A stretch of 64,000 bases of DNA. Source: Thermoleophilia bacterium UBA6103 (GTDB taxonomy: Bacteria; Actinomycetota; Thermoleophilia; UBA2241). Shown here piece by piece: positions 59,909-64,000 of the stretch. The translations under genes were made by a program, and so were the position numbers. The DNA lies in contig DIWP01000048.1 in the NCBI GenBank assembly GCA_002423545.1, positions 79,176 to 143,175 on the forward strand, given 5' to 3'. Each line of letters begins with the position of its first letter. Position 1 is the first letter of the stretch. The notes beneath the pieces are model-generated. The model was given only the letters and a program-made list of their open reading frames with translations. It ran no database searches and was not told the DNA's origin.

Positions 59909-60139
59909 ATGGCCAACGTGACCCTCGCCATCGACGACGGCCTGCTCAGAAGAGCCCGGGTGAAGGCGGTCAATGAGAACACCAGCGTGAACGCGGTCGT
60001 CCGCGACTTCCTCGTCCGCTGGGTGGACGAAGAGGGCGAACGGGCGGCGGCGGTGCACCGTCTGCGCACCGTTCTCGATGCCACCGAGTATCGATCAGGG
60101 GGCGTCAAGTGGACGCGCGACGAGCTGCACGAACGATGA
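59909..60139 (+). CDS. vapB: ribbon-helix-helix antitoxin (VapB-like)
   Basis: 76 aa: MANVTLAIDDGLLRRARVKAVNENTSVNAVVRDFL. Its stop overlaps the toxin start (ATGA). Confidence 0.75.
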   Translation: MANVTLAIDDGLLRRARVKAVNENTSVNAVVRDFLVRWVDEEGERAAAVHRLRTVLDATEYRSGGVKWTRDELHER

Positions 60140-60615
60140 CCGCCTCATTGCTGCCGAGGACGCGTGTCGCGCAGAAGGCGTTCTTCGACACCAACGTCCT
60201 CGTCTACGCACATGATGCCAGCGCCCCGCGCAAGCGAGACATCGCTCGCGCGCTCCTGTTCGATCACCTGGGCGCCGGCAGCCTCTGCGTCAGTACGCAG
60301 GCGCTCTCCGAGTACTACAGCGTGCTCACCACCCGAGGAGAGGTGAGGCTGGGGGCGGAGGCAGCGGCCTGGCTCATCGAGCAGCTGCCGGCCGGTGTCG
60401 TCTTCGCGCCGTCGCTAGATACGCTGAGGGCCGCGGTCAGACGCAGTGCCGGCGGCAGCCTCTCGATCTGGGACGGCCTCATCCTCGAGACGGCGCGTGA
60501 GGCCGGAGCCGGGCTTCTGTACACCGAAGACCGTCGTCTGCTGGCGGCGGTCGACGAGGCACGCGACGGCATCACCGCGCTCGACCCGTTCCGCGAGCAG
60601 GGCGTGGCCGACTGA
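60136..60615 (+). CDS. vapC: PIN-domain toxin (VapC-like ribonuclease)
   Basis: Conserved acidic residues lie in FFDTNVLVY, LSEYY, IWDGLILE and YTEDR. Confidence 0.83.
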   Translation: MTASLLPRTRVAQKAFFDTNVLVYAHDASAPRKRDIARALLFDHLGAGSLCVSTQALSEYYSVLTTRGEVRLGAEAAAWLIEQLPAGVVFAPSLDTLRAAVRRSAGGSLSIWDGLILETAREAGAGLLYTEDRRLLAAVDEARDGITALDPFREQGVAD

Positions 60616-60692: not shown

Positions 60693-61865
60693 ATGCATGA
60701 AGACCGGCCGCACAAGCATTCCCACGAACACGGTGAGGGGCACGTGCACAGTCACCAGCACGTGCACTCCCACGCGCACGCTCACCCGCATCGACACGAC
60801 GACCACACCGCCGGGCTCACGTACAGCGAGTCGGGCGTGGACGTGGCGGCCGGCAATGAAGCGGTCCGGCTGCTGAAAGAGCGCCTCAAGAGCACGAAGA
60901 ACCCACTCGTGCTGGAGGGGATCGGCGGCTTCGGCGGCATCATGCGCATGCCGCCGATCAAGGACGCCGTCTTGGTCGCCGGGGCGGACGGAGCCGGCAC
61001 CAAGACGATGATCGCCCGCGAGATGGGCGTCTGGCACACGGTCGGCATCGACGCCGTGGCCATGAACGTCAACGACGTCTCGGCCTGCGGCGCCGTCCCG
61101 TTCTTCTTCCTCGACTACCTGGTCGTGGCGAAGCTGATCCCGGAGCGGGTAGCGGCGATCGTGAGCGGCGTCGACGAGGGCTGCCTGCGCGCCGAGTGCG
61201 TGCTGCTGGGCGGCGAGACCGGCGAGCACCCCGGACACTTCTCGCACCCCGACGACTTCGATCTGGCCGGCTTCGCCGTCGGCCTCGCCGCCCGCCACGA
61301 GCTGTGGGGACCCGGCAAGGTCCAGGCCGGCGACGTCGTCCTCGGTCTGGCCTCCACCGGCGTCCACTCCAACGGCTTCAGCCTCGTGCGAAAGCTGCTC
61401 GCCGAGCGCGGCATCGGCCTCGACGACCGCTTCCCCGGCTCCGAGAGCCGGGAGGGCGGCGCGCAGAGCATCGGCGACGTGCTGCTCACACCGACCGCCG
61501 TCTACAGCCCGGTGCTGCACGACCTCGGTCACGCCTGCGACGTCCATGCGGCCGCCCACGTCACCGGCGGCGGCTTCCCCGACAACGTCTCACGGGCGCT
61601 GCCGGACGGTCTGGCCGCCGAGCTCGACCTCTCGGCCTGGCAGCCACCGCCGGTGTTCGCCTGGCTGCGCGAGGCCGGCGTCGCCGACGACGACATGCTC
61701 GCCACGTTCAACTGCGGCGTCGGCATGGCCGTCGTCCTCCCTGCCGGCGAGCTGCCCGTGGCCCTCGACACCATCAGCCGCGGCGGGCACACGGCCTGGC
61801 AGATCGGCGAGGTGGTGACCCGCGGCGACGGCGCCGCCGTGCGCTATCGGGGCTCGCTCTGGTGA
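60693..61865 (+). CDS. purM: phosphoribosylformylglycinamidine cyclo-ligase with a His-rich N-terminal extension
   Basis: The core starts at LTYSESGVDVAAGNEAV and continues GGFGG, DGAGTK, DYL and GGETGEHPG. It is preceded in frame by 38 aa containing 16 His. The ATG at 60693 follows AGGGGG. Confidence 0.92.
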   Translation: MHEDRPHKHSHEHGEGHVHSHQHVHSHAHAHPHRHDDHTAGLTYSESGVDVAAGNEAVRLLKERLKSTKNPLVLEGIGGFGGIMRMPPIKDAVLVAGADGAGTKTMIAREMGVWHTVGIDAVAMNVNDVSACGAVPFFFLDYLVVAKLIPERVAAIVSGVDEGCLRAECVLLGGETGEHPGHFSHPDDFDLAGFAVGLAARHELWGPGKVQAGDVVLGLASTGVHSNGFSLVRKLLAERGIGLDDRFPGSESREGGAQSIGDVLLTPTAVYSPVLHDLGHACDVHAAAHVTGGGFPDNVSRALPDGLAAELDLSAWQPPPVFAWLREAGVADDDMLATFNCGVGMAVVLPAGELPVALDTISRGGHTAWQIGEVVTRGDGAAVRYRGSLW

Positions 61866-62836
61866 AGAGCGTCGACCTCATCGGCTGCGGGGCGCTCAAC
61901 CTCGACCTCATCTATCGTCTCCCGGCCGGCTTCGCGCTCTGGGACAGGCTCCCGCCGCGCGGCGCCGAGACAAGCCTCGACGACGCCCAGCGGGCCGAGA
62001 TCGATGAAGCTCTGACCGAGCTGCAGCCGTTCCGCTCCGGCGGCGGTCAGGCCGCCAACGTCGTCTACGGCCTCTGTCGCCTCGGGCATAGCGCCGTCAT
62101 GATCGGCCGTGTCGGCGACGACGCCGAAGGCGAGCTGCTGCGCGACGAGCTGGGCCTGCAGGCGACCCAGCACGTCACGCGCGCCGGTCACAGCGGCCGT
62201 GTCTACGTGCTGCTCGACGAGGGCGGCGAGCGCCGCAACCTGGTCTGGCCGGGCACCAACGACGACTTCGGCCCGGCCGACCTGCCACGCAAGCTCCCGC
62301 GGGCACGCTTCGCCTACCTCACCTCGTTCGTCGGCGACGCGCCGCTGGAGGGCCAGTTGGCCCTGCTCGAACGGCTGCCGGCGACCACGGAGGTCGCGTT
62401 CGATCCCGGCGAGCTCTACGCCGGCAAGGGCGTCAAGCGGTTCATGCCGCTGCTGCAGCAGACCGCGTACCTGTTCGCCACCGAACAAGAGCTGGAGCTG
62501 CTCTGCGGCGTCCAGCTCGAGCGGGCCATCGAGTTCCTGGTGAACCTCGGCGTCGGGACGGTGGTCTGCAAGATGGGCGAGCGCGGCGCCCGGCTGGTCT
62601 CCCGGCACGGCGAGATCTACGTGCCGCCGTCGCCGGCCGCGGTGGTCGACGTCACCGGCGCCGGCGACCTGTTCGCCGCCGGGTTCATCGGCGCCCTGCT
62701 GGAAGACCTGCCGCTCGAGTCGGTCGGACGACTGGCCGCGTGGACGGCCTCACGCGGCATCGGCGGCCTCGGCCGCAGCGCCTACCCCGACGCCGCCGCC
62801 TGGCATGAGCAGGTGGAACTGGAGCGCTCGCTGTGA
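61862..62836 (+). CDS. PfkB/ribokinase-family carbohydrate or nucleoside kinase
   Basis: GGGQAANV, the anion-hole motif DVTGAGD, and ~324 aa. Its GTG overlaps the purM stop (GTGA). Confidence 0.83.
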   Translation: MKSVDLIGCGALNLDLIYRLPAGFALWDRLPPRGAETSLDDAQRAEIDEALTELQPFRSGGGQAANVVYGLCRLGHSAVMIGRVGDDAEGELLRDELGLQATQHVTRAGHSGRVYVLLDEGGERRNLVWPGTNDDFGPADLPRKLPRARFAYLTSFVGDAPLEGQLALLERLPATTEVAFDPGELYAGKGVKRFMPLLQQTAYLFATEQELELLCGVQLERAIEFLVNLGVGTVVCKMGERGARLVSRHGEIYVPPSPAAVVDVTGAGDLFAAGFIGALLEDLPLESVGRLAAWTASRGIGGLGRSAYPDAAAWHEQVELERSL

Positions 62837-63744
62837 GCAAGGAGCCCAAGCAGACGACCGGGTCGACGCCTGCACCGGCGTCCGGTGAGCATGCGCCCGG
62901 CACACACGCGCCGGCCGGACCGCCGCCGCGCATCGGCTGGCTGTCCAGCGGCCGCGACCCCGCGGCTCGCACCCTCCTGAGAGAGGTCATGGAGCGGGCC
63001 GCGCGCGATCAGCTGCCGCTCCACATCGCCCTCGTCTTCTGCGACCGGGAACGCGGGGAGTCGGCCGAGAGCGACGCCTTCCTCTCTCTCGCGGCTCACC
63101 TCGATCTACCGGTCGCGACACTCTCGTCGGCGGCGTCCTGGGAGGCCTTCCGGGCCGGCGCGCCACAGACCACCGACGTCGATCGGAACGCCTGGCGGGC
63201 CGCGTTCCATGAAGAGGCACTGCGTCTGCTCGAGCCCCATCAGCTCGACGTCCTCGTCCTGGCCGGCTACATGCTCATCGTCAGCCCGGCGATGTGCGCC
63301 CGTCATGCCATGCTCAATCTGCATCCGGCGCTGCCCGGCGGCCCCACCGGGAGCTGGCAGGAGGTCATCTGGGAGCTGCTGCGCCGCGGCGCCAAAGAGA
63401 CCGGCGCCATGATCCATCTGGTCACGCCCGATCTGGACCGCGGACCGGTGGTCTCGTTCGACCGCTTCCCGATACGGGGCGGGGCCTTCGATCCCCTCTG
63501 GGAGGCGTTCGGCAGCAAGGTGACTGCCAGAGGACTGGACACGATCATGCAAGAGGAGGGCGAGGCGGAGCCGTTGTTCGCCCTCATCCGCAGCACCGGC
63601 GAAGCTCGCGAGATACCGCTGCTCTACCGCACCGTGGCGCAGTTCGTCCTCGGCCGCCTGCGGGCCGCCCACGGGCATGTGCTGAGCTCCACCCCGCTCC
63701 CCATGGACCTGACCGCCGAGGTCGAACGGGAGGTCGGCACGTGA
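62833..63744 (+). CDS. formyltransferase-fold protein, atypical long PurN-like
   Basis: The N-x-H and H..D catalytic contexts are retained (LNLHPALPGGPTG; GAMIHLVTPDLDRGPVV). There is an extra Pro/Ala-rich N-terminus and a C-terminal extension of about 90 aa. Its GTG overlaps the kinase stop. Confidence 0.72.
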   Translation: MSKEPKQTTGSTPAPASGEHAPGTHAPAGPPPRIGWLSSGRDPAARTLLREVMERAARDQLPLHIALVFCDRERGESAESDAFLSLAAHLDLPVATLSSAASWEAFRAGAPQTTDVDRNAWRAAFHEEALRLLEPHQLDVLVLAGYMLIVSPAMCARHAMLNLHPALPGGPTGSWQEVIWELLRRGAKETGAMIHLVTPDLDRGPVVSFDRFPIRGGAFDPLWEAFGSKVTARGLDTIMQEEGEAEPLFALIRSTGEAREIPLLYRTVAQFVLGRLRAAHGHVLSSTPLPMDLTAEVEREVGT

Positions 63745-63920
63745 CCACCGTGCTCGACGGGAAGGTCGGCGCGTGATCACCGTGCTCGACGGGGAGTTCG
63801 GCGCGTGACCACCGTGCTCGACGGGAAGGTCGGCGCGTGAATACCGTGCTCGACGGGAAAGTCGGCGCGTGACCAACGCGGTCGAGAGAGATCGGCGCGT
63901 GACCGCCGCCGAGTCACCGC
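63709..63920 (+). repeat. 32-bp tandem repeat (about 6 copies) built from a gene-junction module
   Basis: The unit GTGACCACCGTGCTCGACGGGAAGGTCGGCGC occurs at 63741, 63773, 63805 and 63837. A 30-bp variant lies at 63869. Diverged copies lie at 63709 and 63899. Confidence 0.92.
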
Positions 63921-64000
63921 GCATCCCGGCATCCGGCGACCCCGCACACCCTGCAGCCGACGCCCGCGAGCCCTACGACCGCGCAGCCGACGACCGCGCA
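63869..64000 (+). CDS. 5' end of an unidentified ORF that runs off the window
   Basis: The frame is open from GTG 63869 (or in-frame GTG 63899) to the window end (44 codons, Ala/Asp/Pro-rich). It starts inside the last repeat copies. Confidence 0.3.
   Translation, partial: MTNAVERDRRVTAAESPRIPASGDPAHPAADAREPYDRAADDRA

Follow-up and report, generated by a model that had tools for sequence, protein, structure and literature searches.

Tandem duplication of a short DNA segment can place repeats between two genes of an operon. Within a coding sequence, a repeat with a period of 32 nt would be destructive, since 32 is not divisible by three. The window analyzed here, a 64,000-nt stretch of Thermoleophilia bacterium UBA6103 contig DIWP01000048.1, contains such an array, which raises the question of how it arose and how its flanking genes came to tolerate it. 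In our view, the array is probably a locus-specific minisatellite (VNTR) that originated from tandem duplication of a 32-nt segment ending at a stop–start overlap, and it has been tolerated since each copy restores the coupling junction.

The array sits between a formyltransferase gene and a HAD gene in a plus-strand purM-PfkB-formyltransferase-HAD run (Table 1). The formyltransferase was called as a gene in seven public contigs, and it scores 63.5 bits against the TIGR00639 PurN model, under the cutoff of 150.1; the HAD gene runs past the window to approximately position 65302, as mapped from an independent contig (L001). TRF analysis of the 64-kb window revealed one array at 63710–63908 (period 32, 6.3 copies, 84% matches, score 256), followed by a next-best tandem-repeat score of 87. 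With head-to-tail repeats of a 32-nt period, the array belongs with the minisatellites, whose units measure at least 10 nt. The B-type units are laid out as GTGA, the core CCGTGCTCGACGG, a purine box, and TCGGCGC, and this signature is also present in the relatives L009/L015 and L014/L031/L034. Relative to unit 1 (63741, 32/32), the units at 63773, 63805, and 63837 are identical at 29/32, 32/32, and 29/32 positions, respectively. A 30-nt core allowing ≤3 mismatches occurs four times in the window and in none of 100 shuffles; outside the array, further copies were found neither in the 64-kb window at this stringency nor in the additional 10 kb from L001, so that the search covered approximately 74 kb (window plus L001 extension). 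Copy 0, the end of the formyltransferase coding sequence, holds GGGAGG, the strongest SD-like box in the array, and its local alignment to the units gave a score that beats all 2000 shuffles; judged from these alignments, copy 0 is the repeat template. TRF and unit alignment bore out the unit positions and the 30-nt variant at 63869 that a sequence-only reading of this DNA had listed, as well as its count of identical positions in copy 0. A CRISPR array, in which repeats of ~23–47 nt are separated by unique spacers of similar length, was ruled out, as the units are contiguous without spacers.

Table 1. Features of the formyltransferase–HAD junction (positions are those of the 64-kb window)
Feature	Position	Strand	Basis and remarks
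PurN-like formyltransferase, divergent, 303 aa	62833..63744	+	ORF; Pfam PF00551, E=4.7e-16; stop TGA 63742-63744
Copy 0, final 32 nt of the formyltransferase coding sequence (LTAEVEREVGT)	63709..63740	+	24 of 32 positions shared with unit 1
Four head-to-tail 32-nt B-type units (63741, 63773, 63805, 63837)	63741..63868	+	TRF, unit alignment, core search
Mini-ORF 1, VTTVLDGKVGA*	63741..63776	+	Translation; SD -11.0 kcal/mol; start overlaps formyltransferase stop, stop overlaps next GTG
Mini-ORF 2, VITVLDGEFGA*	63773..63808	+	Translation; SD -7.2 kcal/mol
Mini-ORF 3, VTTVLDGKVGA*	63805..63840	+	Translation; SD -7.4 kcal/mol
Mini-ORF 4, VNTVLDGKVGA*	63837..63872	+	Translation; SD -7.2 kcal/mol; stop overlaps GTG 63869
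30-nt A-type unit (GTGACCAACGCGGTCGAGAGAGATCGGCGC)	63869..63898	+	Likeness to copy 0: 0/2000 shuffles reach the score
EhaR-like HAD phosphohydrolase, start homologous to that of relatives (GTGACCGCCGCC...) and N-terminal extension	63899..64000	+	Comparison with L008; SD -4.9 kcal/mol
In-frame 15-nt tandem repeat within the HAD N-terminal extension	63953..64000	+	TRF; L001 11121-11182, 4.1 copies

An array of this kind might be an assembly artefact in which one junction was spuriously expanded, an objection that the sequence-only reading had itself named. Assemblies at k=31 are indeed unable to resolve the array: five Logan contigs terminate inside it, exactly at a shared 31-mer, because k=31 assemblies meet this 31-mer in an array whose exact internal repeat is 37 nt long. 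In addition, L003, with identical flanks, lacks 64 nt (units 2–3), a state that collapse at k=31 could give, as units 1 and 3 share an exact stretch of 37 nt. However, L001, a MEGAHIT k141 contig that shows a single mismatch to the window over 11,168 nt, carries the identical array; the longest exact repeat inside the array is merely 37 nt; the copies differ mutually at three positions; and the relatives carry 1–2 units in 2–3 independent assemblies each. Moreover, the Logan break consists of two different predecessors of the shared 31-mer, which needs at least two units in the reads. The array is thus real and identical in two independent assemblies, and the chance that it was created by assembly is practically nil. 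A putative short allele would be distinguished by the 47-mer GGTCGGCAC-GTGACCACCGTGCTCGACGGGAAGGTCGGCGC-GTGAAT (copy-0 end, unit 1, and start of unit 4), which is exclusive to it, whereas the long allele has the same prefix followed by GTGATC. A caution for annotation and assembly follows, namely that k=31 assemblies break or collapse at the junction array.

Translation of the array showed that the mini-ORFs are 11 residues each, that every TGA overlaps the following GTG, and that all of them begin and end in GTGA. A purine box is visible 7 nt upstream of each GTG, and at every array boundary, stop and start are spaced as in a coupling junction (-4 to +3 nt, preceded by an SD-like sequence). 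According to the gene table, a GTGA overlap is also found at the neighboring purQ/purL, purM/kinase, and kinase/formyltransferase junctions. This architecture agrees with what had been proposed from the sequence: four complete 11-codon ORFs with stop/start overlaps, a GTGA and a purine box in each unit 7 nt before the next GTG, a first GTG overlapping the formyltransferase stop, and a frame from GTG 63869 that stays open to the window end, which L001 continues into a 477-aa HAD-family protein. The SD match weakens along the array, with duplex energies going from those of mini-ORFs 1–4 (Table 1) to -4.3 kcal/mol at GTG 63869 and -4.9 kcal/mol at GTG 63899. For the internal units (-7.2 to -7.4 kcal/mol), they are within the range of the organism's real gene starts and in approximately the top 10% of random positions.

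A copy-number comparison, as the sequence-only reading had proposed, was carried out in relatives with conserved purM-PfkB-formyltransferase-HAD synteny. The junction is a plain 4-nt NTGA overlap with zero units in three lineages (L008/L027, L037, and L038), whereas there is one 32-nt unit in L009/L015, two units (33 + 32 nt) in L014/L031/L034 (three independent assemblies), and five units (4 × 32 + 30 nt) in the window and L001. Inserted units therefore number 0, 1, 2, or 5 across four lineages with flanking DNA 91–93% identical, a copy-number difference that makes the array a VNTR. A scan of genome contigs with the formyltransferase query returned only distant relatives (32–47% identity; archaea and others), and a DNA pattern for the PMDLTAEV codons matched nine loci in metagenome contigs, two of which are relevant (L027, the L008 contig, and L031, of the L014 type), the others being chance matches. 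When the units were aligned to the local coding-sequence end in the window, L009, L014, and L035, only 0–8 of 2000 shuffles reached the score; the conclusion that the units are duplicates of the local formyltransferase end is strongly supported by these comparisons. L035/L036 carry a 28-nt duplicate of their own junction that shares the lineage-specific CAAGTCGACG, a sign that this junction was duplicated separately in that lineage. The microhomology TGACCGCCG occurs twice in L008, exactly 32 nt apart, and T-S-ACC recurs at 32 nt in the outgroup L038; the same segment may duplicate repeatedly because this microhomology (T-S-ACC) is conserved at that distance. L008 is nested in the clade on an NJ tree whose branch support is negligible, and its zero-copy state is likely a loss of units. 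These results strongly favor the slipped junction duplication that had been suggested as one possible origin, given the derivation of the units from the coding-sequence end, the copy-number series, and the L035 event. In all three unit-bearing clade lineages (window, L009, and L014), the chain of ORFs runs without a break between the formyltransferase stop and the HAD start. In L010 and L035, whose spacers are non-repeat or short, a mini-ORF starts on the upstream stop and ends 4–6 nt before the downstream start. The 62-nt spacer of L010 was also considered as a degenerate old unit, for which the alignment gave no support (270 of 2000 shuffles reach the score).

The VNTR reading can be laid out as a sequence of events. 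The ancestral state is a plain NTGA overlap. In it, the conserved Leu-Thr codons (C-T-S-ACC) located 11 codons before the stop and NTG-ACC at the downstream start form a pair of short matches at a distance of 32 nt, which may offer a substrate for replication slippage or unequal exchange. The duplicated segment holds the upstream stop, the downstream start, and the SD box, which makes each copy a self-contained 11-codon cistron, and the flanking genes remain undamaged because the segment brings these three elements with it. Coupling works best when stop and start lie -4 to +3 nt apart and is mostly gone beyond ~30–40 nt, and a spacing of -4 is the commonest in prokaryotes (PMC12548453, review). 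Ribosomes leaving the formyltransferase would terminate and reinitiate unit by unit at the favorable -4 spacing, a relay that may keep some translational coupling over a gap of 124–154 nt, otherwise too long for coupling. Each added step probably sheds ribosomes, and the predicted net effect is a mild copy-number-dependent drop in HAD translation, with no designed switch. Copy number rises and falls among lineages (0, 1, 2, and 5), and a unit that loses 2 nt, such as that at 63869, joins the HAD reading frame and extends the protein at its N-terminus.

The same chain of ORFs admits two functional readings, which the divergence of the units bears upon. The mini-ORFs are complete, with a start, an SD-like box, and a stop, and could encode functional micropeptides. 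However, their variants comprise nine nonsynonymous and three synonymous changes (site ratio 2.46), a pattern free of purifying selection, and the peptide thus shows no conservation. Its sequence also changes from copy to copy and from lineage to lineage (L009, for instance, has VTAVLHGGVGA), L014 joins two units in a single 22-codon ORF, and the ORFs are missing in L008. The micropeptide idea, rejected on the nine-to-three variants, is hardly conceivable.

According to the second reading, the array is an adaptive tunable relay or attenuator, in which serial termination–reinitiation sets the HAD:formyltransferase ratio, and selection keeps the GTGA and SD features of each unit and favors particular copy numbers. 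Its appeal lies in the stop-overlapping start and upstream SD-like box of every unit, in internal SD energies that match those of real gene starts, and in a chain that stays unbroken in the window, L009, and L014, even with the 30- and 33-nt indel variants. The weak SDs at the window's true HAD starts (-4.3 and -4.9 kcal/mol vs. -12.6 kcal/mol before the HAD start in L008) would fit HAD translation that depends on reinitiation, and MIRU copy number has been reported to affect neighboring gene expression (PMC4338821). However, the B-type units are 84–88% identical between lineages (hand count), as compared to 84–89% at third codon positions of the flanking genes, which suggests that they drift at an approximately neutral rate; with ~32 sites per unit and three lineages, this comparison is also compatible with weak selection. 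No part of the unit varies more than the purine box (GGCGGGG in L009, -6.3 kcal/mol). The conservation of GTGA carries no statistical weight, since with six substitutions in 128 sites the chance of none in 16 GTGA sites is ~0.45 by our own estimate, and two of the three possible indel lengths preserve the chain by chance. In addition, L008 seems to have lost its units again, which leaves it with zero copies, and there is no confirmed polymorphism within a population. Of the relay or attenuator proposed earlier, the architecture stands, with an ORF chain intact in all unit-bearing lineages, but a sign of selection is lacking: unit divergence equals that of third positions, the peptide is unconstrained, and the SD decays. 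We consider an adaptive relay unlikely. The B-type unit has nevertheless persisted across ~8% DNA divergence, and the intact ORF chain could reflect selection for coupling.

Alternatively, the array might be a cis-acting nucleic-acid element (a series of protein-binding sites, a structured RNA, or an attenuator), with the ORF pattern being incidental. Each unit contains short inverted repeats that can be read directly from the sequence (CCGT-N5-ACGG and GGTC-N7-GACC), and the CCGTGCTC-ACGG core and the TCGGCGCGTGA segment vary least across lineages. However, the folding energy of the array is no better than that of shuffles (z = -0.85; 43/200 shuffles as good), Rfam gave no match at E ≤ 1, and a scan of the array for promoter-like or terminator-like sites found nothing. 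The unit simply copies the end of a coding sequence, and three lineages with the same operon lack units. A cis-acting element is therefore very unlikely.

The locally born VNTR has a close counterpart in the mycobacterial MIRU-VNTRs, which reportedly go back to Supply et al. in 1997. In these intercistronic tandem repeats, small ORFs couple to the flanking gene with a spacing of -4 nt (PMC12548453, PMC3184786), and the sequence-only reading, which was not aware of a described element of this kind, needs correction accordingly. MIRUs are 40–100 bp long, dispersed at ~40–50 loci, and thought to transpose with tetranucleotide direct repeats (PMC3184786); their ORFs are thought to let insertion occur with minimal impact on downstream translation (PMC12548453). 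Like MIRUs, the array consists of tandem, gene-oriented units inside an operon of a high-G+C actinobacterium, the small ORF of each unit (here, every mini-ORF) overlaps the neighboring cistrons at -4 nt, and copy number varies between lineages. Judged by the MIRU descriptions used for comparison (PMC12548453, PMC3184786, PMC3635867), the array differs in its period (32 nt vs. 40–100 bp), in having its unit at only one junction in ~74 kb rather than a family at tens of loci, and in units that copy the adjacent coding-sequence end (0/2000 shuffles) and were thus born in place, not inserted. [quoted passage not shown] Homology of the array to MIRUs is unlikely because of this local origin; the MIRU-VNTR is the closest known analogue, which the array resembles in mechanism without being a member. 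When the literature was searched for other intercistronic tandem repeats derived from a gene junction, nothing beyond MIRUs came up.

Similar parallels hold for other systems. Each boundary of the array is a GTGA stop/start overlap, as in ordinary NTGA (-4) coupled gene pairs, but here the junction is repeated five times in series with 11-codon cistrons, and there is no direct gene-to-gene join. In bicistronic-design leader cistrons, or "delivery" uORFs, a short functionless ORF ends on the target start codon and hands the ribosome over (PMC12548453). The mini-ORFs likewise have no function of their own and end on the next start codon; however, such leaders are single and engineered or individually evolved, whereas the array is a natural series of tandem duplications, the need for which is putative. 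Phase-variable repeats mostly have units of 1–8 nt and act through promoter spacing or frame shifts. Like bacterial intergenic VNTRs and contingency loci, the array is a slippage-prone repeat whose copy number could alter the expression of an adjacent gene, but unlike contingency-locus repeats, its 32-nt junction unit by construction disturbs the frame of neither flanking gene. The array is no new kind of regulator; it is a new case close to known intercistronic repeats. It provides a natural case in which a repeat that is not a multiple of three survives inside an operon because what is repeated is the stop/start junction. In close relatives, one junction carries 0, 1, 2, or 5 units, an allelic series that is a test bed for the efficiency of serial reinitiation and the reach of coupling.

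The downstream end of the array bears on the HAD start. In L008, the HAD start GTGACCGCCGCCGGCTCATCGCGC directly overlaps the formyltransferase TGA, and the start homologous to that of the relatives is GTG 63899, not GTG 63869; both GTGs share one frame. Gene callers set the HAD start at the GTG of the A-type unit (L001 11037), which is in frame with the downstream gene as the unit length is a multiple of three and which, if used as a start, adds 10 codons (VTNAVERDRR). This annotated start at 63869 is probably a captured repeat unit. Junction duplication is also a suggested, though unproven, route of origin for MIRU-type elements with coupled mini-ORFs and for N-terminal gene extensions. A broader reading joins this route to the relay: ribosomes would pass four to five 11-codon cistrons to a HAD start stripped of SD strength, copy number would set the enzyme ratio, and duplication of NTGA junctions would be a general birth route for MIRU-like minisatellites and N-terminal extensions, with the 30-nt unit at 63869 as a caught intermediate of the latter; taken as a whole, we find it improbable. 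The HAD N-terminus itself was tried as a further relative of copy 0, with a marginal likeness (74/2000 shuffles reach the score). Within the HAD coding sequence, repeats recur every 15, 30, or 39 nt, each a multiple of three, and period 32 is found only at the junction array. The 15-nt repeat of the HAD extension is part of the same repeat-prone stretch as the junction array.

The tandem array described in the sequence-only reading, at the junction between a PurN-like formyltransferase gene and an EhaR-like HAD phosphohydrolase gene (HAD), was confirmed. A TRF search of the whole 64-kb window placed a single array at this junction, and the runner-up repeat in the window scored only 87. The units at 63741 and 63805 are identical, and those at 63773 and 63837 each differ from that pair at 3 of 32 positions; the match of 24/32 between unit 1 and copy 0, the last 32 nt of the formyltransferase coding sequence (CDS), was reproduced. 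A 30-nt core, searched with ≤3 mismatches, occurs four times in the window, always within the array, and 0 times in 100 shuffles. Three-frame translations returned the four 11-residue mini-ORFs as listed earlier: each ends in a TGA that shares bases with the following GTG, the GTG of the first overlaps the formyltransferase stop, and the frame from GTG 63869 stays open to the window end.

That the array might be an assembly artefact, a concern raised with the original observation, was checked and ruled out by an independent contig, by repeat length, and by the break points of Logan contigs. The exact upstream protein sequence is present on seven public contigs, including L001, a 27-kb MEGAHIT k141 contig of the same lineage that shares 11,168 nt with the window with one mismatch and carries an identical array. 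Because the longest exact repeat within the array is 37 nt, any assembler with k > 37 can resolve it. Five Logan contigs (k=31) all end 25 nt past the stop codon, where the next 31-mer is common to units 1 and 3, and these read sets therefore contain more than one unit. Another contig, L003, reads across this locus and retains only units 1, 4, and 5, which makes it 64 nt shorter, with flanks identical to L001; the short form reflects either a true deletion, between the identical units 1 and 3, or a collapse of the assembly graph.

We then compared the same junction in ten lineages, nine of them at the DNA level. In local alignments, the units scored against their own CDS end above 1992–2000 of 2000 shuffles, which, together with the junction states of the relatives, indicates that they are duplicates of the junction segment. 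The single unit of L035/L036 is a copy of its own lineage's CDS end, private CAAGTCGACG included, and the junction appears to have been duplicated independently there. A "B-type" signature, CCGTGCTCSACGG, is common to the window, L009, and L014 and absent from the other fetched loci; the B-type copy is therefore older than the split of these three lineages and was amplified in the window lineage. In a neighbor-joining tree, whose internal branches are essentially unsupported, the zero-copy L008 nests within the clade, which suggests secondary loss.

Features of the junction, its relatives, and neighboring genes (window positions unless a contig is named; anti-SD values are duplex energies in kcal/mol, random positions −2.9 ± 2.5).
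Feature	Position or locus	State or value
Tandem array	63710-63908	period 32, 6.3 copies, 84% matches, score 256
Formyltransferase gene	62833-63744	Formyl_trans_N domain, E = 4.7e-16
Copy 0	63709-63740	CDS end
30-nt unit variant	63869	
Junction	L037, L038	formyltransferase ~68-70% identical; direct stop/start overlap ATGA
Junction	L008/L027 (clade member)	overlap GTGA; HAD opens GTGACCGCCGCC..., homologous to window 63899
Junction	L016	6-nt spacer
Junction	L010-L013	62-nt spacer; similarity to CDS end not significant
Junction	P0127 locus	11-nt gap
Junction	L035/L036	one unit, 28 nt
Junction	L009/L015	one 32-nt unit GTGACCGCCGTGCTCCACGGCGGGGTCGGCGC, GTGA on each side
Junction	L014/L031/L034 (three independent assemblies)	33-nt unit, then 32-nt unit
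Junction	window, L001	4 x 32 nt, then 30 nt
Anti-SD	63741	−11.0
Anti-SD	63773	−7.2
Anti-SD	63805	−7.4
Anti-SD	63837	−7.2
Anti-SD	63869	−4.3
Anti-SD	63899	−4.9
Anti-SD	L008 HAD start	−12.6
Anti-SD	L014 HAD start	−10.8
HAD start, as called	63869 (L001 11037)	GTG
HAD start, homologous to L008	63899	GTG
HAD N-terminal extension repeat	63953-64000 (L001 11121-11182)	15 nt x4.1
HAD internal insertion repeat	L001 11884-11961	39 nt x1.9
HAD N-terminal extension repeat	L014 1092-1181	30 nt x3
Glutamate-synthase-like gene repeat	L001 17635-17730 (outside window)	in-frame 15 nt x6.4, score 143
Conserved cluster	61862-63744 and L001 9030-12470	5' of purH
PurM-like gene start	60693-60810	His-rich N-terminal tail
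GCACGC repeat	60758-60790	6-nt repeat
Small ORF and PIN-domain pair	59909-60615 (L001 7077-7783)	purF-purM interval
Short formyltransferase call	L034 566-1039 (GCA_016866025.1, VGNS01000373.1)	157 aa

The zero-copy junctions suggest how such units could arise. In L008, TGACCGCCG is present twice at a spacing of exactly 32 nt, once within the Leu-Thr-Ala codons that precede the stop by 11 codons and once at the HAD gene start; T-S-ACC recurs at this spacing in the outgroup L038. The second codon of an NTGA overlap is necessarily A-initial (review PMC12548453); here it is ACC, the same as the conserved upstream Thr codon. Microhomology spaced at 32 nt is what slippage or unequal exchange would be expected to act on, and we infer slippage as the mechanism of unit duplication. 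Given units that copy their own CDS end and a series of 0, 1, 2, and 5 units, the earlier suggestion of a VNTR born from slipped duplication of the junction is the best-supported reading, and a likely one. On this reading the repeat is tolerated, and is probably partly transparent to translation, since it iterates the coupling junction. The 10 extra HAD codons between the two candidate starts (63869-63898) appear to be a captured 30-nt unit, which may illustrate how junction duplication can give rise to an N-terminal extension.

To what extent the units are under selection bears on the other proposal of the sequence-only reading, a tunable relay or attenuator that sets HAD expression by serial termination-reinitiation. 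Among four clade members, flanking coding DNA is 91–93% identical and third codon positions 84–89%; B-type units, counted by hand, are 27–28/32 identical between lineages (84–88%) and thus evolve about as fast as third codon positions. Distinct variants in the mini-ORF frame comprise nine nonsynonymous and three synonymous changes against a site ratio of 2.46, indicating that the peptide is unconstrained. Few parts of the unit vary as much as the purine box (GGCGGGG in L009). GTGA is intact at every internal boundary of the window array, which carries no weight because the probability that none of 6 substitutions in 128 sites falls within the 16 GTGA sites is ~0.45 by our own calculation.

The relay is mechanistically plausible, and the ORF chain from upstream stop to downstream start is unbroken in all unit-bearing clade members: L009 has a single 11-codon ORF with a GTGA at each end; the 33-nt first unit of L014 yields one 22-codon ORF, which passes through an internal TTGA and stops at the GTGA where HAD begins; and the window has four 11-codon ORFs and then the 30-nt unit, which is in frame with HAD. 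In L035 and L010, a mini-ORF begins on the upstream stop and ends with TAG 4–6 nt before the HAD start. However, chance alone keeps the chain in two of three possible length classes, stop codons are infrequent at 70% G+C, these observations are post hoc, and no selection signal supports the relay, which we therefore regard as unlikely. The anti-SD duplex energies give the first mini-ORF of the window the best ribosome-binding site and HAD a poor one, a weakness that would fit HAD relying on reinitiation, or its expression simply having decayed. Coupling is best at −4 to +3 and is reported to be largely lost past ~30–40 nt (PMC12548453); since the HAD start lies 124 nt (63869) or 154 nt (63899) from the formyltransferase stop, coupling, if kept, must pass via the mini-ORFs.

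RNA folding of the region was no better than that of shuffles (z = −0.85), there was no Rfam match at E ≤ 1 for the array region, and no promoter-like or terminator-like site was found in the 4 kb around it; a CRISPR array was ruled out, as the units lack spacers. The earlier statement that no such element had been described stands only in part. Mycobacterial MIRUs come closest among described elements: they measure 40–100 bp, occupy ~40–50 loci with polycistronic transcription, contain ORFs that overlap adjacent genes, and bear signs of transposition (PMC3184786). Their copy number has been reported to affect the expression of neighboring genes, though the results are mixed (PMC4338821). The array resembles MIRU-VNTRs in architecture, but its unit is 32 nt, is not dispersed within the 74 kb examined, and derives from the adjacent gene rather than from insertion, and membership was rejected on these grounds. 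Searches of open-access text turned up no other intercistronic repeat described as derived from a gene junction. The array is best described, from these comparisons, as a putative MIRU-like intercistronic minisatellite born in situ, and its main interest lies in the natural series of 0, 1, 2, and 5 units, on which serial reinitiation could be tested.

In-frame tandem repeats abound in the adjoining HAD CDS of this clade, with 15-nt and 39-nt periods in the window lineage and a 30-nt period in L014. As these are all multiples of three, the 32-nt array stands apart as lying outside both reading frames, tolerated only because each unit supplies its own stop and start. A further strong in-frame repeat lies in the glutamate-synthase-like gene, and minisatellite expansion within coding sequence seems to be a general tendency of this genome.

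The formyltransferase scores 63.5 bits against the PurN equivalog (cutoff 150.1), so "PurN-like" is a fair label and canonical PurN is not; homologues at 45–47% identity occur in archaeal Methanomassiliicoccales. Completed from L001, HAD encodes a 477-aa protein with weak HAD-superfamily matches, whereas its homologues are mostly 345–366 aa and are labeled by JGI "energy-converting hydrogenase A subunit R" or "predicted HAD superfamily phosphohydrolase". The order purM, PfkB-family kinase, divergent formyltransferase, HAD is kept in all relatives fetched, and close homologues carry names that suggest uncultured Actinobacteria. The PurM-like protein carries a His-rich tail of ~37 aa, HKHSHEHGEGHVHSHQHVHSHAHAHPHRH, partly encoded by the GCACGC repeat, which might bind metal; zur/znu genes had been mentioned in the same window. 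A toxin-antitoxin-like pair of a small ORF and a PIN-domain gene lies inside the purine operon, also in L009, L010, and L016, with a 34-aa ORF in its place in L008. In the MAG contig L034 the formyltransferase is called short, whereas the near-identical gene of L014 encodes 278 aa; the L034 assembly probably contains a frameshift or a sequencing error.
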